Origin: Rhodobiaceae bacterium UBA7804
GTDB taxonomy: Bacteria; Pseudomonadota; Alphaproteobacteria; Parvibaculales; Parvibaculaceae
Assembly (NCBI GenBank): GCA_002480495.1
Contig: DLCG01000008.1
Location: 88,036 to 152,035, forward strand
Reading direction: 5' to 3'
Length of the DNA: 64,000 nt
In this document: in pieces, positions 49,791 through 59,217 of the stretch
Layout: every line of letters begins with the position of its first letter
Numbering within the stretch: position 1 is the first letter of the stretch
The notes under the pieces: model-generated
What the model saw: the letters and a program-made list of their open reading frames with translations, nothing else
What the model was told of the DNA's origin: nothing
Database searches by the model: none
Program-made: the position numbers and the translations under genes

Positions 49791-50393
49791 ATGCAAGTCG
49801 TACTTCTGGAACGGGTCGAAAAGCTCGGCCAAATGGGCGATGTCGTCAAAGTGAAGGACGGTTTCGCGCGGAATTTCCTGCTGCCCCGCAAAAAGGCGCT
49901 TCGCGCCACGAAAGCCAATCTTGAGCAATTCGAGAAGCAGCGCGCGCAGCTTGAAGCCCGCAACCTCGAACTCAAGAAGGAAGCCGAACAGGTTCACGCC
50001 AAGGTGAACGGTCAGGCTTTCATCGTGCTGCGCCAGGCAGGCGAGACCGGTATTCTCTACGGTTCGGTCAGCACACGCGACATCGCGGACGCCATGACGA
50101 ATGGCGGCTTCTCGACCGCCCGCAACCAGGTCGTTCTCGACAAGCCGATCAAGACGATCGGCCTGCACGAGATACGCATCGTGCTGCATCCCGAGGTTTC
50201 CGCCACGATCTCGATCAACGTGGCGCGCACCGAGGAAGAGGCACAGCGCCAGGCGGCAGGCGAAGACCTGACGCAGACGCGCGAGGAGCGCGAGGACGAG
50301 GAACAAGAGGCCGCCGAGTTCTTTGAGAACGAAGAACTGGCGCCGCAGGACGGGGAAGAGTCTTCGGAAGACGAAGGCGAGACTCAGGCCTAA
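49791..50393 (+). CDS. rplI: 50S ribosomal protein L9 (with long acidic C-terminal extension)
   Basis: [32 protein letters not shown]. The gene follows rpsF-rpsR. Confidence 0.95.
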
Positions 50394-50419
50394 GTTCTTT
50401 TCCTGGAAGGGAAATTCAG

Positions 50420-50453
50420 AGGGGCGCTCCGACGGGGCGCCCCTTTTTTGTTT
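50420..50453 (+). terminator. Rho-independent terminator of the rpsF-rpsR-rplI operon
   Basis: GC stem aggggcgc/gcgcccct is followed by TTTTTTGTTT, about 27 nt after the rplI stop. Confidence 0.75.
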
Positions 50454-50606
50454 CGGAACCGGCACCGCATCCCGGCGTTCCTCTTGCAACGGCTTGAGGA
50501 TTAACTTTAGATACATTCCAGAAAGCTTGTCCGCGCCGCATCCCCCCAAAGGCGACGGGACCGGATGGGGCACCTGAAATTTCAATCCTCGGTACGGGAG
50601 GGTTCG

Positions 50607-51857
50607 ATGGTTTTCAGCGCGCTTCTCAGGAAAGTCGTGAAACGCGGCTCACTGACGATTGTCGGAGCCGACGGCAAACGCACGGAATTCGGAGACGGCT
50701 CCGGCGAGCCGGTGACCATCCGCTTCCACGACAAGACGGTCTCGACCGAGATCGCGCTCAATCCCTATCTCAAACTCGGCGAAGCCTTCATGGATGGCAG
50801 GCTGACCATCGACAAGCCCGCGACGATCTACGAACTTCTCGATCTGCTGACCTCGAATCTGGGCCGGAACTTCGCCGGCCCCGTCTTCGAAATCTATGGC
50901 GCGCTCAGGCGGATGAAGCGGCGGATCGACCAGCACAATCCCGTGGGCAAGGCGGAGAAGAATGTCGCCCATCACTACGACCTCGACGGCGGCATCTACG
51001 ACCTCTTCCTCGACCGCGACAAGCAATATTCCTGCGCCTATTTCCAGCGGCCGGACATGACGCTCGAAGAGGCGCAACACGCGAAAAAGCGCCATATAGC
51101 AGCGAAACTCGGCATCGAGCCGGGCATGCGCGTGCTCGATATCGGCTGCGGCTGGGGCGGCATGGCGCTGACGCTGGCGGAGGAAACGGGCGCGGAAGTC
51201 GTGGGCGTCACGCTCAGCCACGAACAACTGAAAGTGGCGCAGCGCCGCGCGGAAGAGCGCGGCCTCGCCGACAAGGTCGAGTTTCGGCTGCAGGACTATC
51301 GTCTGATCAAGGAGAATTTCGACCGCGTCGTTTCCGTCGGCATGTTCGAGCATGTGGGCGTCGGCCACTACCGCGAATATTTCGACGGGGTGACGAATCT
51401 CCTCACCCATGACGGCGTCGCGCTGATCCATACGATCGGACGGCTGGACGGGCCGGGATCCACTAACCCATGGATTGCAAAGTATATTTTCCCGGGCGGC
51501 TATATCCCTGCGCTGAGCGAAATGTCCGGCGTGGTGGAGCGGACGGGCCTCTTCATGACGGATGTCGAAATCCTCCGCCTCCACTATGCGGAGACCTTGC
51601 GCGAATGGCGGCGGCGCTTCATGGAAAGGCGCGAAACGGCGGCGCGCATCTATGACGAACGCTTCTGCCGCATGTGGGAGTTCTACCTGGCGGGCTCCGA
51701 AACATCCTTCAGAAACGAGGGGATGGTCGTTTTCCAGATGCAGCTGGCGAAGAAGATCGACACGCTGCCGCTGACCCGCGACTACATGCTGGAGGAGGAA
51801 CGCCGCCTTGCCGGGGCCGAGCGGACCCCTCAGCAGCGGCTCATGGCGGGCGACTGA
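50607..51857 (+). CDS. cfa: Cyclopropane-fatty-acyl-phospholipid synthase family methyltransferase
   Basis: HYDLDGGIYDLFLD...YSCAYF, then VLDIGCGWGG and EHVG. The start is uncertain (50565 or 50607). Confidence 0.8.
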   Translation: MVFSALLRKVVKRGSLTIVGADGKRTEFGDGSGEPVTIRFHDKTVSTEIALNPYLKLGEAFMDGRLTIDKPATIYELLDLLTSNLGRNFAGPVFEIYGALRRMKRRIDQHNPVGKAEKNVAHHYDLDGGIYDLFLDRDKQYSCAYFQRPDMTLEEAQHAKKRHIAAKLGIEPGMRVLDIGCGWGGMALTLAEETGAEVVGVTLSHEQLKVAQRRAEERGLADKVEFRLQDYRLIKENFDRVVSVGMFEHVGVGHYREYFDGVTNLLTHDGVALIHTIGRLDGPGSTNPWIAKYIFPGGYIPALSEMSGVVERTGLFMTDVEILRLHYAETLREWRRRFMERRETAARIYDERFCRMWEFYLAGSETSFRNEGMVVFQMQLAKKIDTLPLTRDYMLEEERRLAGAERTPQQRLMAGD

Positions 51858-51858
51858 T

Positions 51859-51915
51859 CTATCCCCGCCTGCGGGGATAGGCGAGGCTGCACTTGTCCCC
51901 GGGGGCGGGGACAAG
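51859..51915 (+). terminator. Two tandem perfect GC-rich hairpins directly after the cfa stop (possible terminator; no T-run)
   Basis: ctatccccg-cctg-cggggatag (51859-51880) and cttgtccccg-gggg-cggggacaag (51892-51915). Confidence 0.35.
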
Positions 51916-52021
51916 AAGACCCCACCGTCATCGTAACGTCACCGAACCGTCACAAAAGGCAGCTTTATCCCCGCTTGCGGGATAACCCTCCCCCGCCCCG
52001 CGACTCACGGTAAAATCGAAT

Positions 52022-52159
52022 TCATCCACAGGCTATTCCGCGCGAAAGCCCCGCTATTTCAAGGGTATGGCGGAATCCGTTCCACTTATCCACAGTGGCG
52101 GGAAAATTAAGCTGTGGGTGAGCGGATAAATCTCCGCATGGGGCGGAAATTTATCCGCA
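52022..52159. promoter_or_regulatory. Cluster of DnaA-box-like 9-mers upstream of dnaB
   Basis: Perfect TTATCCACA at 52086-52094. One-mismatch boxes TCATCCACA at 52022-52030 and TTATCCGCA at 52151-52159. A weaker inverted AGCGGATAA lies at 52121-52129. The dnaB ATG is at 52181. Confidence 0.55.
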
Positions 52160-52180
52160 GCTTCGTTTACAAATGACGCC

Positions 52181-53671
52181 ATGGAACAGACCGCCGCCTA
52201 CTCCCCCTCGCCCGACGACGAAACCCACGACGCCTATCGCGTGCCGCCGCACAATATCGATGCGGAACAGGCGCTCCTGGGCGCGATCCTCGTCAACAAT
52301 GAGAGCTATGACCGCGTCGCGAGCTTTCTCGACCCGATTCATTTCTTCGATGCCGTACACGGACGAATTTACGAGGCGGCGGCGAAGCTTATCACGGGCG
52401 GCCACCTCGCCTCGCCCGTGACGCTGAAGAATTTCTTCGAGCGCGACGAGGCGCTGGCCGAGATCGGCGGACCCGCCTATCTCGCGCGGCTCGCGGGCGC
52501 GGCGACGACGATCATCAATGCGGAGGAATACGGGCGGACGATCTACGACCTCGCGATCCGCCGCGAACTCATCCGCGTCGGCACCGACATTCACAACCGC
52601 GCCTATGACGCGCCGGTGGACGACACGCCGAGCGCGCAGATCCTGGAAGCCGAACAGGCGCTCTACCAGCTTGCCGAACAGGGCAAATATGAGGGCGGCT
52701 TCCAGAGCTTCCACGAGTCGCTGAAAACCGCCATCGACATGGCGGCCGAAGCCTACAAGCGCGACGGCGGGCTTTCCGGCATCTCGACCGGGCTTCGCGA
52801 CCTCGACCACCGCCTTGGCGGGCTTCAGCCCTCCGACCTCATCATCCTTGCGGGCCGCCCCTCCATGGGCAAGACGGCGCTCGCGACGAACATCGCCTTC
52901 CAGGCGGCCAAGGCCTACAAGGCGGAGCATCACGCGGACGGCACGGTCGAGGCGAAGGACGGCGCCATTGTGGGGTTCTTCTCGCTCGAAATGTCGGCCG
53001 AGCAGCTCGCGACGCGATTGCTCGCCGAACAGTCCGGCGTGCCGTCGGAGCGCATCCGGCGCGGCAACATCCATGAGGACGAGTTTCATCAGCTCGTCGA
53101 CGCCGCGCAGCAACTGCAGAGCATTCCGCTCTATATCGACGATACGGGCGGCCTCACCATCGGCACGCTCGCCGCGCGGGCGCGGCGGCTGAAGCGGCAG
53201 CGCGGCCTCGGGCTTCTCGTGATCGACTATCTGCAGCTTCTCGCGGGCTCCGGCAAGTTCGGCGACAACCGCGTGCAGGAAGTGACGCAGATCACGACCG
53301 GCCTCAAGGCGCTGGCGAAGGAATTGAATGTGCCCGTGATCGCGCTGTCACAGCTCTCGCGACAGGTGGAAGCGCGAGAGGACAAGCGGCCGCAGCTCGC
53401 CGACCTTCGCGAGTCGGGCTCGATCGAGCAGGACGCGGACGTCGTCATGTTCGTCTTCCGCGAGGAATATTACGTCTCGCGGCGCGAGCCGACCGAGGGC
53501 ACGCCCGAACATCTTCAGTGGCAGGAGGAAATGGAGCGCGTGCACGGGCTCGCCGAATGTATCATCGGCAAGCAGCGCCACGGCCCCACGGGCACCGTCA
53601 AGCTGCAGTTCCAGGCGGATGTGACGAGGTTCTCGGACCTCGATCAGGTGCATACGGAGGGGTTTGAGTAA
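52181..53671 (+). CDS. dnaB: Replicative DNA helicase
   Basis: PPHNIDAEQALLGAILVNN at the N-terminus, Walker A AGRPSMGKTA, then LIVIDYLQLL-like LLVIDYLQLL, and SQLSR...DLRESGSIEQDADVVMF. Confidence 0.95.
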   Translation: MEQTAAYSPSPDDETHDAYRVPPHNIDAEQALLGAILVNNESYDRVASFLDPIHFFDAVHGRIYEAAAKLITGGHLASPVTLKNFFERDEALAEIGGPAYLARLAGAATTIINAEEYGRTIYDLAIRRELIRVGTDIHNRAYDAPVDDTPSAQILEAEQALYQLAEQGKYEGGFQSFHESLKTAIDMAAEAYKRDGGLSGISTGLRDLDHRLGGLQPSDLIILAGRPSMGKTALATNIAFQAAKAYKAEHHADGTVEAKDGAIVGFFSLEMSAEQLATRLLAEQSGVPSERIRRGNIHEDEFHQLVDAAQQLQSIPLYIDDTGGLTIGTLAARARRLKRQRGLGLLVIDYLQLLAGSGKFGDNRVQEVTQITTGLKALAKELNVPVIALSQLSRQVEAREDKRPQLADLRESGSIEQDADVVMFVFREEYYVSRREPTEGTPEHLQWQEEMERVHGLAECIIGKQRHGPTGTVKLQFQADVTRFSDLDQVHTEGFE

Positions 53672-53678
53672 GGGGCCA

Positions 53679-54545
53679 TCAATCAAAATCAAACAAAATG
53701 TCGTCTTCCTCAGATATCGGCGTTTCAACCCTAAACCGAAGCCCCGGCCCCGCGTTTTCCCACTCTAACTTAGGAAGCCCCTCCGCCTGAGCGTCCATCA
53801 ACTCAGGCGCACCGAAAAATCCGACAATGCGGCGAGATTTATTCCATTCCAGCGCAAACGCCCTAATAGCAGAATCGTTTTCTTGCCTGCGAATAATTAT
53901 TCTGAAGAAACCCTGCGCTCCGTAGCCATGAAGACAGGTGCTCCATGGTCGGGTAATATCTGCAAAAGCTCTTATCGTTCGATTTCCCCAATCAGCAAAA
54001 TCCACCTCTCCAACAAAGCAAATCTCACCGGGGATTGCACTCCCTCTTCCGATAGAAGAATTGAAAGTGATGAGGTAGTAAAACGCTTGAAGCTGCATCG
54101 CAGCGAGTTTGAACACTCTTTCTGGTTCAATCTGCGGCGGACCGACGAAACCGAAACTTACACTGGCGCCCCCTAATATCTCTCCCGATACCTCATCCTT
54201 CACGAAACTATCTGCGATAGCCTTACGCGTGAGACGACTCGTGGAATTCGTCACTTTGCGCTGAGCATGAGTCTGGCAGTCACGGTTAAGCTTCCTTGCC
54301 TTTGACGCGCGGAGCAGCGTAATTGCGGATATGTCATCTTCGAGATCAGATTTGGCGTTATTGCATTGACGGCAAGCCCTGACGATTACAGACCAGCAGT
54401 TGTCTAACGATCCCTTCGGCACAAACCGACGGGCGACGACATGATCATCCGTGAGCGGATTTTCTGGAGTCTCTTCGCGACCACAGTAAGTGCACAAAAC
54501 CCCCACTACACGAGTAGCTTTGCCATTGGGTAGGAAGTTGTCCAA
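53679..54545 (-). CDS. HNH (His-Me finger) endonuclease domain protein with ~210-aa uncharacterised C-terminal region
   Basis: CTYCG...LTDDHVVARRF...CRQCNNAKSD lies in the first ~70 aa. I recognise no motif in the remainder. The ORF-track start is TTG at 54545 and a GTG four codons before the CTYCG motif is an alternative. The segment is AT-rich. Confidence 0.7.
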   Translation of the reverse strand: MDNFLPNGKATRVVGVLCTYCGREETPENPLTDDHVVARRFVPKGSLDNCWSVIVRACRQCNNAKSDLEDDISAITLLRASKARKLNRDCQTHAQRKVTNSTSRLTRKAIADSFVKDEVSGEILGGASVSFGFVGPPQIEPERVFKLAAMQLQAFYYLITFNSSIGRGSAIPGEICFVGEVDFADWGNRTIRAFADITRPWSTCLHGYGAQGFFRIIIRRQENDSAIRAFALEWNKSRRIVGFFGAPELMDAQAEGLPKLEWENAGPGLRFRVETPISEEDDILFDFD

Positions 54546-54612
54546 TTTTGAGGCCCTTAGAACAAATCTCTCTTGTTGATAAGCTGAAAAGAGACATCAT
54601 CCGAGATTAATT

Positions 54613-55281
54613 TTATCTCTGAGCGCCGAGGTCAGCAGCCTCAGCAGCCATCTTTCGCCAAGTCGCATTCTCAATCAAACTCGAGCGCACTATCTTCAAA
54701 TCACTGCACCCCGGAATCGACTTTAGTGTCTGCTTGACTGACTCTTTCTGAACTGGAGGCATCCAAGGGCTCAGCGTGATGCTTTTTATCCAGCTCAGAT
54801 CGAAGGGGAGATCGAGAGAGTCGAGATCTTCATTCTTGCTCACATACACCGCTCTGTATTCCATTTCATCCGTGTACGGTGCACGCTTAAGAAAAGGCAA
54901 ATCAACAACATCGATTCGATCTCCGCGCTTGATATCACCTAGCATTTTGTAGCTGACATATCGCGCCGTAACGCCGTCAGCGTTGTCAAACATCTTGACC
55001 AGCGGGCTACGTAGGAAATCAATACATACGCCATTCGGCCCCCCGGAAAACACTCGCCAGTGATGATAAGTTTCCTGACTTTGTGTAAAGCAAAGCGCAA
55101 GGACGGTTTGAGCATCGACCTTCCGCTTGTATTCTGCCATGAAATGCGCGTCGTTCTTGTCATCCCATGCCGCTGGGTTGAGTAAAGTTATACTTTTGGT
55201 CTGCAAAATGTGAATGAGGGACGCAAGGTTAGTGAATCTGCGCAATACGGTCTTCAGTACCCGTGGTTTCGCCTCCGCCAT
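54613..55281 (-). CDS. DUF2971-like protein
   Basis: The ATG at 55281 is preceded by GGAGG at 7-nt spacing; the track start at 55305 is TTG. Motif layout is LLNPAAWDDKNDAHF, LCFTQSQETYHHWRVFSGGPNGVCIDF and EMEYRAVY, as I recall for DUF2971. The family call is from memory only. Confidence 0.6.
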   Translation of the reverse strand: MAEAKPRVLKTVLRRFTNLASLIHILQTKSITLLNPAAWDDKNDAHFMAEYKRKVDAQTVLALCFTQSQETYHHWRVFSGGPNGVCIDFLRSPLVKMFDNADGVTARYVSYKMLGDIKRGDRIDVVDLPFLKRAPYTDEMEYRAVYVSKNEDLDSLDLPFDLSWIKSITLSPWMPPVQKESVKQTLKSIPGCSDLKIVRSSLIENATWRKMAAEAADLGAQR

Positions 55282-55447
55282 TGCCACCCTCCAGTTGCAG
55301 AGCAAACTTCAGTAGTCTTCTAATGATGCCATAACTGCCGTTATCTCAGAGAGTTTTCTGTGGGCGTTGCCCATTGCGCACGAGGGCGGAGAATATCTCT
55401 TGCGAAGCGGGACGGCGCGCAGAGCGCGCCTTCTGGATTGCCGGGTT

Positions 55448-55464
55448 CCCGGCTTTCGCCGGGA
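55448..55464. repeat. REP-like palindrome, partial copy (cccggctttcgccggga)
   Basis: The 17 nt are identical to the core of the 381-403 and 55566-55588 copies. Confidence 0.7.
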
Positions 55465-55565
55465 CAGGAGCCGGGGACCATTCGCGGTGCTCTTTGCCGC
55501 AGCGTTGGTTGATGGGGTGGCGCTCACGCCGAATTCAATCGTTCTTGCTGAGAGAACCAATGGGT

Positions 55566-55588
55566 CCCGGCTTTCGCCGGGATGACAT
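55566..55588. repeat. REP-like palindromic repeat (cccggctttcgccgggatgacat)
   Basis: Identical 23-mer to 381-403. The flanks are also similar (atgg.. before, ..tg.ggg after). Confidence 0.8.
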
Positions 55589-55613
55589 CTGTGGGTGTGG
55601 CAAGCGCGGCGGC

Positions 55614-56990
55614 TCAAGCCGCTTTCTCCGTGGGCAGATCGAGTTTGTTCCAGGCCGTCATGCCGCCCAGCAGGTTCGAGACGTTGGTGAACCCTGAGCG
55701 AGCGAGGATGCTGGCGGCGAGGCCGCCGCGATGGCCGACGCTGCAGGTGACGGCGACGGGTTCATCCCGCTCGAGGCCGAGCTCGCCGAGCTTCTCCTCG
55801 ATGCGGCCGGCATGGACATGGCGGGCGCCGGGGATGTGACCCGCCGCGAAGGCGCTCTCCTCGCGCACGTCGAGAACGGCGGTGCCGTTCGCATCGAGCC
55901 GGAGCGAGAGTTCACGCGGGCTGGTGGTGGCGAGCGTCTGGACGGGGCGGCCCGCATTGCGCCAGGCGGGAAAGCCGCCCGTAAGCGCGCCCTTCACCCG
56001 GTCGAGCCCGATGCGGGCGAGCGCGAGGCGCGCATCGAGCGCGGCCTCGGGGCTTTCGGCGACGAGCCAGACGGGATCATGCGCGCAGGCGACCCAGCCG
56101 CCATAGATCGACATGCCGCCCTGCCAGACATTGACCGAGCCCGGCACATGGCCGCCCGCGAAGGCCTCGACGTCGCGCGTGTCGATGACAACGCCCTCGC
56201 TCGCGCGCGCCGCGAACTCCTCCGGCGAGAGCCAGTCGAAGGGGCGCGCGTCGAGCGGACGGCCGCCCCCGAGGTTCACCTCCTCCATCAGCCGGAAGTA
56301 AGGCGGCCGCGCCATCCGCTCGGAAAGCTTGTGGCGGACGAAACCGTCGCGGCCGAGCCTTGCGGCCGCATTGGCGCTGCGCTCGATCCCGATGGTCGAC
56401 CATTCGCGGTCGGCGACATTGCCGCCGCAGGCCGAGCCCGGTCCATGCGCGGGCAGCACCAGCGCTTGGTCGCCAAGCGGGAAGACGCGTTCGTGGAGCG
56501 CATCGTAGAGCTCGCCCGCATGCTCGCCGGTCTTCTCCGCGTCGATGAGATCGGTGCGGCCGGTGTCGCCCATGAAGAGCGCATCGCCGGTGAAGACGCC
56601 CCAGACGGTCTCCGGCGCCTCGTCGAGCGTGACGGCGTAGCACATGCTCTCCGGCGTGTGGCCCGGCACATGAAGGGCGCGAAAGGAAATGCCGCCGCCG
56701 AGGCCGAGCGTGTCGCCCTGTTTCAGCGGACGGCCGGCATGGGGCATGAGTTCGTGATCGCAGGCGACGATCTCGGCGCCGGTGACGTCGCGCAGCGCCG
56801 CACCGCCCATCTCGAAATCCTCCTGGCGGTGCGTTTCCAGCACGTAACGCAGCGTGAGTCCGTTCTTTCGCAGAATGTCGAGATAGCGTTCGACATCGCG
56901 GGCCGGGTCCACAATGGCGGCGGCGCCGCCACCGCCGATGATATAGGCGAAATGGGCGATGCCGGGCGTCTCGATGCGCTGGAAAAACAT
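55614..56990 (-). CDS. MBL-fold hydrolase fused to two rhodanese domains (persulfide-dioxygenase/sulfurtransferase-like)
   Basis: MBL core LETHRQEDF... / HVPGHTPES, followed by two rhodanese-like segments. The second has the active-site loop CSVGHRGG. The start was set at MFFQRIETPG (cat at 56988-56990). Confidence 0.75.
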   Translation of the reverse strand: MFFQRIETPGIAHFAYIIGGGGAAAIVDPARDVERYLDILRKNGLTLRYVLETHRQEDFEMGGAALRDVTGAEIVACDHELMPHAGRPLKQGDTLGLGGGISFRALHVPGHTPESMCYAVTLDEAPETVWGVFTGDALFMGDTGRTDLIDAEKTGEHAGELYDALHERVFPLGDQALVLPAHGPGSACGGNVADREWSTIGIERSANAAARLGRDGFVRHKLSERMARPPYFRLMEEVNLGGGRPLDARPFDWLSPEEFAARASEGVVIDTRDVEAFAGGHVPGSVNVWQGGMSIYGGWVACAHDPVWLVAESPEAALDARLALARIGLDRVKGALTGGFPAWRNAGRPVQTLATTSPRELSLRLDANGTAVLDVREESAFAAGHIPGARHVHAGRIEEKLGELGLERDEPVAVTCSVGHRGGLAASILARSGFTNVSNLLGGMTAWNKLDLPTEKAA

Positions 56991-57111
56991 GGGGCGTCCT
57001 CTCCTTCCGTCGGTCGGGAAGATAACGCGAGGCGGCGGCACGGGTTCCCGCGGCGAGGCGGCGCGTGGAAGGCGCGCAGAAGAAGGAGCGAGGCTCGCGC
57101 TGGCGAAGCGT

Positions 57112-59217
57112 TCAGCCTGCGGCGGCAGAGCCGAGGGACGCGGGGGCGAGAATGCGTTCGGGCGGGAGCGTGACGACGACCATTGTGCCGCGGCCGGGCT
57201 CGCTCTCGATTTCGAAGCGGCCGCCATGCTGCTTCGTCAGTTCCTGCACGATGGGCAGGCCGAGGCCGAGGCCGCCATATTTGCGGCAGAACTGGTTTTC
57301 GAGCTGGCCGAAGCGGGCGAGCGCCTTGGGAATGTCCGCCGCGGCAATGCCGATGCCCGTGTCCGAGACGGCGATGACATAGCCCCTCGCATCCGCCGAG
57401 AGGGACACGGTGACGGTACCGCCCTCGACATTGAACTTGATGGCGTTGCCGGCGAGGTTGGTCAGGATCTGCCGGATCTTGCGCTCGTCGGCGATGACGG
57501 CGGGGAGCGCGGACGGCACGTCGAGGCGGCAGGCGACGCCCGCCTCCTCCGCCTTCAACCTCACCGTATCGAGCACGCGGGCGGCGATTTCCTCGATCCG
57601 GACTTCCTCCTCGTAGAGCGCGTCCGTGCCGGCCTCGACGCGCGAGATGTCGAGAATATCGCTGACGAGATCGAGAAGATGGCTGCCGCTGTCGTTGATG
57701 TCCTTCGCATAGTCCGCATATATCCCGTTGCCGAGCGGACCGAACAATTGCAGCTTCATCGCCTCGGAAAAGCCGATGATGGCGTTCAAGGGCGTCCTGA
57801 GTTCGTGGCTCATGGTGGCGAGGAATTCGGACTTGGCCTGCGAGGCCTCCTCGGCGAGAAGGAGTGCGCGCGACAGATCGGCGGCGCGGGCTTCCAGCGC
57901 CTCGTGGCTTTCGAGGAGATTGCGGTGGAGCGCATCGCGCTCGCGTTCGACGCGGCGGTAATTCAGCACGAAGGCGCGAATATGAAGCGTGGTGACGAAG
58001 ATCACGAGCAGGTTCGACAGCTCCATCGAACTGCCGATGACCTTCATGCTCGAAAGCATCTCATAGACCAGATAGGCCAGCGCGGCGAGAAGCACGGCGA
58101 GCACATCGCCGCGCGGCGCCTTCTCGACAATCAGGGCACGGAGGATCGTGCCGCCGACGGACAAGGCAATGAGCGCCCAGAGCGCCTGGAAGGGCTCGCG
58201 CAGAAGCGTGATCGTGCCCGGCGCCATGAAGGGCGCGACGAAAAGCGCGAAGCCGCAGAAGAGCGCGGAGACGGCATAGATCAGCTTGTCGATCCAGAGG
58301 ACGCGGCCATCGCGGAAGAGATAGTTGATGAAGGCGTAATAGGCGGGCGCGATGAGAAAGAGGGAGAGATATTCGAGGTCGTATTTCCGCGCTTCGGGAA
58401 AATCGGGCAGATAGTCCCAGATGAGATTGCTGACGAGGAAGACGCGGAGCGCGGAGGCGGCGGACAGCGCGGCGAAGATGATGTGCCCGCCGGGATGATC
58501 CGTGGAACGGCCGACCGCCAGCGCGGCGACGGCGACGAGAAAGAGGACCAGCGCCAGGGCCGTGGGCAGCGCGCTGGCGCGACGCTCCATCGACTCCATT
58601 TCCTGCAGATAGCCGATGGAGGGCACATCGACGATGCCGCCCTGCTTGTGGACATGGTTCGCGAGCTGGACGACGAGACGCAACTCGCGCAGATCGTGCG
58701 GCAGGGGGATGATGGGCGCCGTCGGGTTGACGGCGGTGATGTTCGCGGCGGCGGCGGGATCGCCATTCTGGTGGAGGAGCACCGCCTGCACATCCTCCGG
58801 GCCGGAGGAGACGGCATGGATCGCATAGATGGAGCGCGTGGTGCCCATCGAGAGGGCGAGGAATTGCGGCGTGGCCGGAAGCACGAGATCGAGGCAATAG
58901 GTGGCGGCGCCGTGGCCGGTGGTGACGTCCGTGGTGAGGGCCGGGCCCCAGATGTCCGGGAGGGAGATGCGCTCGCCCGCGACGCGCCCATCGGGAAGCA
59001 TGCAGGAGGCTGCGAAATCGGAGGGCGGCAGGAGCGCATCGCGATAGACGGTCCAGCCGTTCTTCAGCGCGAGGCGGCCTTCCCGCGCGAACTCGACCGC
59101 GGCCGCGCCCCGGCCCGCATCGCGGGACGCGGCAGGGCCCGCGGCGGCAATGACCGCCACGCCAAGAAGGAACAGGACGAAGGTCCCCCTCCAATGTCCA
59201 GGCGCAGTCCGAAACAT
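57112..59217 (-). CDS. Sensor histidine kinase with N-terminal periplasmic domain and multi-TM block (7TMR-DISM-like architecture)
   Basis: Signal/anchor at the N-terminus, a ~200-aa extracytoplasmic region, then about 7 hydrophobic helices, then H-box MSHELRTPLNAIIGFSE and DTGIGI / GLGLGLPIV. The 7TMR-DISM label is inferred from layout only. Confidence 0.8.
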   Translation of the reverse strand: MFRTAPGHWRGTFVLFLLGVAVIAAAGPAASRDAGRGAAAVEFAREGRLALKNGWTVYRDALLPPSDFAASCMLPDGRVAGERISLPDIWGPALTTDVTTGHGAATYCLDLVLPATPQFLALSMGTTRSIYAIHAVSSGPEDVQAVLLHQNGDPAAAANITAVNPTAPIIPLPHDLRELRLVVQLANHVHKQGGIVDVPSIGYLQEMESMERRASALPTALALVLFLVAVAALAVGRSTDHPGGHIIFAALSAASALRVFLVSNLIWDYLPDFPEARKYDLEYLSLFLIAPAYYAFINYLFRDGRVLWIDKLIYAVSALFCGFALFVAPFMAPGTITLLREPFQALWALIALSVGGTILRALIVEKAPRGDVLAVLLAALAYLVYEMLSSMKVIGSSMELSNLLVIFVTTLHIRAFVLNYRRVERERDALHRNLLESHEALEARAADLSRALLLAEEASQAKSEFLATMSHELRTPLNAIIGFSEAMKLQLFGPLGNGIYADYAKDINDSGSHLLDLVSDILDISRVEAGTDALYEEEVRIEEIAARVLDTVRLKAEEAGVACRLDVPSALPAVIADERKIRQILTNLAGNAIKFNVEGGTVTVSLSADARGYVIAVSDTGIGIAAADIPKALARFGQLENQFCRKYGGLGLGLPIVQELTKQHGGRFEIESEPGRGTMVVVTLPPERILAPASLGSAAAG

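Follow-up and report, generated by a model that had tools for sequence, protein, structure and literature searches.

A DarT-like DUF2971 protein and a solo HNH nuclease, probably two unrelated single-gene modules, in a hypervariable slot 3′ of dnaB in a marine Parvibaculum

A low-GC block between two convergent core genes

The stretch of DNA analyzed here (the window) comprises 64 000 nucleotides (nt) of contig DLCG01000008.1, positions 88 036 to 152 035, from a marine Parvibaculum sp., with MAU60529 to MAU60533 as exact protein matches. Our subject is a block of two open reading frames (ORFs) immediately 3′ of the replicative helicase gene dnaB: ORF A, which encodes a DUF2971-like protein, and ORF B, which encodes an HNH nuclease. 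An original prediction, made from the sequence alone, had read the pair as a candidate two-gene defense or abortive-infection (Abi) module. The ORF coordinates, strands, and spacer length given in that prediction were confirmed on the sequence (Table 1), and ORF A has an alternative TTG start at 55305 that would extend its product to 230 amino acids (aa). The two minus-strand ORFs are directly flanked by dnaB and by a metallo-β-lactamase (MBL)-fold/rhodanese gene, which are convergent. In transcription order ORF A lies upstream and ORF B downstream, abutting dnaB and ending 7 nt from its stop codon (53671); the words “proximal” and “distal”, used earlier for the two proteins, are ambiguous in this respect.

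The block departs sharply from its surroundings in composition, with a G+C content of 49.5% in 53673–55305 compared to 62.7% in 50000–53672 and 67.5% in 55618–59000. The two counts with which this break had been illustrated are exact (26/60 G+C in 54061–54120 and 45/60 in 56041–56100). No tRNA gene was found in the window, and no flanking direct repeats, att sites, or integrase were found at the block. Its immediate neighbors are dnaB and the MBL-rhodanese gene, and, as originally described, no mobility gene adjoins it.

Table 1. Features of the dnaB-3′ block and its borders, in window coordinates
Feature	Coordinates	Strand	Remarks
dnaB, replicative helicase	52181..53671	+	496-aa ORF; Pfam DnaB/DnaB_C in public gene calls; left core boundary of the hotspot
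Variable cargo interval 3′ of dnaB (both ORFs and REP-like field)	53673..55617	.	delimited by blastn against L089
ORF B, solo HNH nuclease	53679..54545	-	288 aa, TTG start; HNH at aa 18–67
Spacer, ORF A stop to ORF B start	54546..54612	.	67 nt
ORF A, DUF2971-like, PDC-S31 match, predicted DarT-like ADP-ribosyltransferase fold	54613..55281	-	222 aa from ATG
REP-like field, non-coding, upstream of ORF A	55306..55613	.	within the variable interval
MBL-fold/rhodanese gene	55614..56990	-	458 aa, as publicly called in L088 and L090 (same DNA as the window); right boundary in the window strain

Close relatives carry different cargo at the same site

Exact-DnaB look-ups returned many conspecific contigs whose DNA is identical to the window. 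They also returned the conspecific genome L089 (GCA_017643205.1), which has an identical DnaB protein and a different block. Blastn aligned this genome to the window over 51000–53672 at 97.7% identity and over 55618–58000 at 98.4%, with nothing aligned in between. In place of 53673–55617, L089 encodes an SLFN_AlbA_2 protein of 441 aa together with a small methyltransferase (L089:9493-11785). Other cargoes were found in two relatives whose DnaB falls in the same 90%-identity cluster, namely a 306-aa unknown protein with a DUF7946/DUF7947 protein (L174:7498-10030) and a 219-aa unknown protein with an HTH_3-Peptidase_M78 protein and a 147-aa protein (L187:7492-10593). The cargo genes are 44–53% GC in genomes of ∼61–63%, the exception being the L089 methyltransferase at 65%. 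In L174 and L187 the MBL-rhodanese gene is itself absent, so that in some strains the variation extends further.

The closest non-self homologues of ORF A (64% and 68% identical) lie in two sister lineages that keep the rpsF-rpsR-rplI-CMAS-dnaB synteny, L081 (dnaB 88% identical as DNA) and L175 (DnaB 92% identical as protein). Both are convergent with dnaB and sit 34–39 nt from its stop codon, and neither is accompanied by an HNH gene. A DUF2971-like gene next to dnaB is thus the wider arrangement, with the HNH gene of the window as an extra wedged in between, and the occurrence of ORF A alone at the same dnaB-proximal site speaks against the claim that the pair forms one two-gene system.

Altogether, at least five different cargoes occur 3′ of dnaB in Parvibaculum relatives, including HNH with DUF2971 and DUF2971 alone. 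Because the cargo differs among such close relatives, the block is best described as the current occupant of a hypervariable hotspot, and 53673–55617 as a slot of hypervariable content delimited on either side by the stop codon of a core gene, the two genes being convergent. The original proposal of horizontally acquired cargo in a core-gene neighborhood is supported by these comparisons. Defense or integration hotspots between conserved core genes are known, for example among the hotspots of the E. coli pan-genome. The dnaB-3′ site resembles core-gene defense hotspots in having identical core flanks, alternative low-GC cargo in close strains, and breakpoints exactly at the flanking stop codons, but unlike those that carry an integrase, an att site, or a satellite backbone, it shows none of these. 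Cargo is most likely exchanged by homologous recombination in the flanks.

The repetitive extragenic palindromic (REP)-like field, originally taken as the right edge of the block, does contain palindromes, but with the edge corrected to 55617 it falls inside the variable interval, and it is absent from L089. An 18-nt palindrome, TCCCGGCTTTCGCCGGGA, is present in two exact copies (55447–55464 and 55565–55582), and a third copy with one mismatch lies at 380–397, where 0.01 matches would be expected by chance. A ∼75-nt element related to this palindrome sits upstream of the ORF A homologue in the sister species L081. Such recurrence could reflect either a genome-wide REP family or common ancestry of the region upstream of ORF A. 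Beyond the field, the mechanically called ORF of the MBL-rhodanese gene is longer than the public gene call (537 aa, 55614–57227, with an ATG at 57227); its extra N-terminus is rich in Ala, Pro, and Ser and is probably not translated.

The two protein families do not travel together

Searches yielded 593 full-length homologue matches for ORF B and 795 for ORF A, from which we assembled two sets of loci. For ORF B, species-representative genomes were scanned with the HNH-family alignment, giving 80 loci with flanks of up to ±10 kb. Their homologues are 32–44% identical to ORF B and come from Alpha-, Beta-, Gamma-, and Deltaproteobacteria, Planctomycetota, Acidobacteriota, Verrucomicrobiota, and other groups. 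For ORF A, a metagenome scan with the corresponding family alignment gave 80 loci, 40 of which have at least 1 kb of sequence downstream of the gene.

Tblastn with ORF A found nothing in the 80 ORF B loci with the threshold relaxed to E < 10, and ORF B, as positive control, was recovered in 80/80; a profile hidden Markov model (HMM) of the ORF A family, run against six-frame ORFs of the same loci, gave no match at E ≤ 1. In the opposite direction, neither tblastn with 38 queries nor a profile HMM detected a member of the HNH family in the 80 metagenome ORF A loci. Nine further ORF B loci and 11 further ORF A loci, fetched individually or from IMG/VR, likewise showed no adjacency of the two genes. 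Counting non-self loci only, and with both search methods, ORF A was near ORF B in 0/89 cases and ORF B near ORF A in 0/91.

All-against-all clustering of ORFs within ±5 kb at the 80 ORF B loci revealed no conserved companion, the largest neighbor cluster being present in 5/80. An unknown 224-aa protein downstream of P0082 was considered as an A-like partner and rejected (hhalign probability 2%). No neighbor of ORF A is conserved across the 80 metagenome loci either; the commonest is a pyrD-like dihydroorotate dehydrogenase core gene, downstream of which ORF A homologues lie in 15 loci (L093 and 14 other metagenome loci), a recurrence that is probably lineage synteny. Because adjacency is absent from all 89 and 91 loci and ORF A stands alone in two sister lineages, ORF A and ORF B are probably not one system, and the “nuclease-plus-partner cassette” of the original prediction dissolves into two families that are not neighbors elsewhere.

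ORF A is a PDC-S31 member with a predicted DarT-like fold

The original prediction associated the layout of ORF A with DUF2971. The window protein itself scores 14.8 bits against Pfam DUF2971 (PF11185; E = 0.076), under the 22-bit gathering score, but 28/32 aligned full-length homologues (47–67% identical) match PF11185 at E ≤ 0.01, the best at 8.8e-7, and several homologues are named DUF2971 in public sources.

PADLOC assigns ORF A to PDC-S31 (PDLC04993; E = 4.6e-14), with aa 12–204 aligned to profile positions 16–235 of 245, and PDC-S31 HMMs match 32/32 aligned relatives nearly full length, with E down to 3.4e-19. ORF A thus falls within a candidate family that already has a name, which counts against the original proposal of a new two-gene system. 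For ORF B, PADLOC returned weak matches over the HNH region only. The PDC systems, 145 “phage defence candidates” in all, were proposed on the basis of guilt-by-embedding (Payne et al., bioRxiv 10.1101/2024.01.29.577857). The “S” in PDC-S31 denotes the single-gene class, and ORF A likewise occurs as a solo gene, with no conserved neighbor and alone after dnaB in the sister lineages. Its setting differs from the guilt-by-embedding basis of PDC-S31: ORF A is embedded not in BREX, DISARM, or restriction-modification (RM) loci but in the dnaB-3′ hotspot.

An AlphaFold2 model of ORF A (pLDDT 90.3, pTM 0.84) was compared with known structures using Foldseek. The top six matches in the PDB are all DarT (E from 1.6e-4 to 9e-4, TM-scores 0.40–0.46) and are the only ones at E ≤ 0.001, followed with weak scores by SopF and the NAD+-dependent transferases Tpt1/KptA. 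The family alignment contains invariant residues Y111, E139-x-E141, and H73/H74. A published classification, with which these findings agree, places DUF2971 among the ADP-ribosyltransferase (ART) families, near DarT and AbiGi, and ascribes to it a conserved Tyr and an ExE motif (PMC12522546). On the strength of its model, ORF A is predicted to be a DarT-like, ART-fold protein of the DUF2971 family.

With DarT (PDB 7omv-7omy, 7yk3) ORF A shares the ART fold (probability ∼1) and an ExE motif of the ART type. In DarTG defense, viral DNA is ADP-ribosylated. ORF A differs from the DarT toxin in having large helical inserts. It also differs in lacking a DarG-like antitoxin: no macrodomain or ADP-ribosylglycohydrolase gene neighbors ORF A, the co-directional ORF B matches only HNH in Pfam, and no DarG-type or other conserved antitoxin partner was found across the loci of the ORF A family.

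A second point of comparison is Aristaios, a DUF2971 protein of 316 aa from a lactococcal plasmid that is a validated single-gene Abi system and affects phage transcription (PMC11381338, PMC13064643). Both are single-gene and have a DUF2971/ART-fold domain, while Aristaios comes from a Firmicute plasmid and is ∼95 aa longer. Because a tblastn search of 72 556 plasmids with ORF A gave no lactococcal match, we place this relation at the level of the domain family only. No full-length match to ORF A was found in the plasmid or phage collections. Six IMG/VR viral contigs carry an ORF A homologue, and in seven loci (L111 and six others) the homologue is convergent with ORFs resembling phage head or tail genes.

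ORF B belongs to a uniform family of solo HNH nucleases

The nuclease motif first noticed in ORF B (CTYCG...DDHVVARRF...CRQCNNAKSD) is present, and Pfam HNH (PF01844) matches aa 18–67 with 28.8 bits against a cut-off of 21.4 (E = 1.4e-6). The HNH core is intact. Across 38 homologues H35, C58, C61, and N62 never vary, C18 and C21 are retained in ≥ 90%, and K65 is conserved. From this pattern, C18/C21/C58/C61 are the predicted zinc site, H35 the putative catalytic His, and N62 the putative metal-binding Asn. Where the consensus “WNL” has its structural Asn, ORF B and its sub-clade have Ser. The domain aligns to the Gme HNH structure 4h9d and to Cas9 HNH domains.

The ∼210 aa after the HNH motif had been described as devoid of recognizable motifs, and in the ∼220 aa outside the HNH domain nothing recognizable was found by us either. 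The C-terminal region (∼185 aa from residue 105; profile aa 105–288) shows strong conservation, including the motifs DWGN, ALEWN, and RxxGFFG. Sequence-profile searches of the PDB, Foldseek (PDB and BFVD), Pfam, NCBIfam, and PHROGs returned nothing significant for this domain. The region is modeled with confidence (ORF B model, pLDDT 88.6, pTM 0.88), and Foldseek found no structural analogue, the best PDB match having E = 0.08 and TM ≤ 0.2 and the best BFVD match E = 0.018. A profile of the C-terminal domain alone, run against 1.84 billion proteins, gave 471 representative clusters, almost all of ∼285–320 aa with the domain in the same position. Alternative fusions were absent from this search except for one chimera, P0386 (529 aa), in which an N6-adenine-methyltransferase-like N-terminus (GNPPW) is in frame with the post-HNH part of an ORF B-family protein; it may represent a rearrangement or a disrupted gene beside an RM-type methylase.

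Public calls of ORF B as 174 or 275 aa (P0246-P0248, P0251) derive from identical DNA, and the N-terminal residues they omit are conserved in homologues. Since the true start is TTG, these short entries are start-codon miscalls, which rules out decay into a pseudogene; other short forms in the family are likewise start-codon miscalls or partial sequences. ORF B is rare in viral and plasmid sequence: it had no match in 50 697 phage records, matched 2 of 2.9 million IMG/VR contigs, and had no full-length match in the plasmid collection.

The closest non-self homologues of ORF B are 50% identical and occur in other contexts. One of them, P0003, lies in a dense conflict island (L085:148-18770) that resembles an integrative and conjugative element or a defense island and encodes a caspase-DEAD helicase fusion, HEPN_Toprim_N, ArdC-MPTase, CTD9/MC5/AAA_23, a DnaJ-domain protein, and a large AAA_11/AAA_12/MTES_1575 helicase; another adjoins an unrelated 203-aa ORF. 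Across the family neighborhoods are heterogeneous. Some homologues sit in islands with the arrangement integrase-RelE/HTH-[HNH]-Mrr-caspase or with IetA, PD-Lambda-2, PD-T4-6, MADS components, or ArdC, and others are found among metabolic genes.

Comparison with known HNH effectors places ORF B apart from each of them. It shares the ββα-Me HNH core and the CxxC...CxxC zinc site with Septu PtuB and with Cap5, ZorE, and McrA-type type IV enzymes, and its weak PADLOC match to Septu (PtuB HMM, E = 1.5e-5) covers 58 of 227 profile positions within the HNH core. No PtuA ABC-type ATPase is encoded in the block, so the PtuB-PtuA arrangement is absent. Unlike Cap5- and ZorE-type systems, ORF B has no cyclase or Zorya partner and is always solo, and unlike HNH effectors with SAVED, SRA, or other reader domains, its C-terminal domain matches no such module in the PDB or BFVD. 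The family is an uncharacterized, architecturally uniform family of solo HNH nucleases.

Interpretation of the locus

We consider it likely that ORF A and ORF B are two unrelated, independently inherited single-gene modules that lie side by side in the dnaB-3′ hotspot and do not form a system. The proposed link to defense then survives for at least one of the genes, as ORF A has a defense-candidate pedigree, and lapses for the two-gene system. ORF A would be a self-contained Abi toxin, kept inactive until infection. With NAD+ as substrate it would then ADP-ribosylate a target, either nucleic acid or protein, and thereby block phage replication or transcription, the invariant E139-x-E141 being its putative catalytic motif. 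ORF B would be a zinc-stabilized HNH nuclease, most likely a stand-alone regulated enzyme of type IV-restriction-like or Abi effector character in which the C-terminal domain serves as gate or targeting module. Its gene may have been wedged between dnaB and a pre-existing ORF A gene, or may have arrived separately. The stronger proposal that ORF B founds a new single-gene anti-phage nuclease family, with its C-terminal domain as a new sensor or targeting module, is tentative, and we consider it rather unlikely. Less likely still, and in the window's Parvibaculum lineage only, ORF B could be coupled to the DarT-like enzyme, for instance by cutting ADP-ribosylated DNA.

Several observations weigh against this interpretation. 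Regarding ORF A, PDC-S31 stands as a predicted candidate (bioRxiv 10.1101/2024.01.29.577857), the Foldseek TM-score to DarT is only ∼0.45, and no link to DarT at the sequence level came up when PDB sequences were searched by profile (E ≤ 10). For ORF B, we applied PADLOC and Pfam to 148 ORFs within 3 kb of the homologues and to 148 control ORFs 6.5–10 kb away; no defense-island enrichment was demonstrated, since the control set gave comparable PADLOC matches, and because defense matches occur in both sets we make no claim of enrichment. As to the hotspot, no empty site was found in any relative reached by the exact DnaB look-ups. The two genes themselves lie on the same strand and have nearly equal GC contents (0.495 and 0.502 for ORF A and ORF B). 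In the 67-nt spacer between them (54546–54612), no site resembling a consensus promoter or terminator was found. Among conspecific contigs, 19 or more carry one of the genes, and every one of these has the other as well. From strand, spacing, GC, and constant co-occurrence, ORF A and ORF B may be co-transcribed and functionally linked in this lineage; comparative support for such a link was not found.

Among the alternatives, the one that survives best, though improbable, is that neither gene is defensive: ORF A would be an ART-like regulator or effector acting on the cell itself, ORF B a nuclease of DNA repair or recombination, and the hotspot a collector of miscellany. It would fit the standing of PDC-S31 as a candidate by prediction, the view of DUF2971 proteins as also including predicted secreted effectors or stress-related proteins (PMC12522546), the many ORF B homologues among metabolic genes, and the housekeeping-like look of one alternative cargo gene, the 65% GC methyltransferase. 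Presence or absence at the strain level, with exchange for conflict-type genes (SLFN/AlbA_2, HTH-M78), is however typical of defense hotspots, a DUF2971 protein is a validated Abi system, and ORF A homologues occur on viral contigs.

Marginally less probable again is a selfish origin of ORF B, as a free-standing, homing-type HNH endonuclease inserted precisely between dnaB and ORF A without benefit to the host. In its favor, the gene is solo, lacks a conserved partner, has a GC content below that of its host in most loci, and in the window comes as close as 7 nt to the end of dnaB, in surroundings free of mobility genes. Its near absence from the phage and IMG/VR collections argues the other way, as do the lack of any intron or intein context, the highly heterogeneous neighborhoods with no recurrent homing site, and a large conserved C-terminal domain unlike the DNA-binding modules of known homing endonucleases.

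Least probable, and in our view very unlikely despite the shared strand, close spacing, matching low GC, and constant association within the species, is a single two-gene defense or Abi system that divides sensing or marking on the one hand and execution on the other between its two proteins (in one variant, DNA marked with ADP-ribose by the DarT-like enzyme would be cut by the HNH nuclease), given the absence of adjacency in both directions, the solitary ORF A of two sister lineages, and the separate contexts, free of conserved partners, in which each family is found.

Significance

No new multi-gene system is revealed by this locus, and the main value of the analysis is to prevent that mis-annotation. 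If our reading of two independent modules is right, the site is a clean natural example, from a marine alphaproteobacterium, of a defense-type hotspot adjoining an essential replication gene at its 3′ end, and its five or more alternative cargoes would be useful for mining further candidates. The locus also offers two testable single-gene candidates, a PDC-S31/DarT-like ART that, like Aristaios, would have to keep its self-toxicity in check without an antitoxin, and a compact HNH family whose conserved C-terminal domain matches no known fold.

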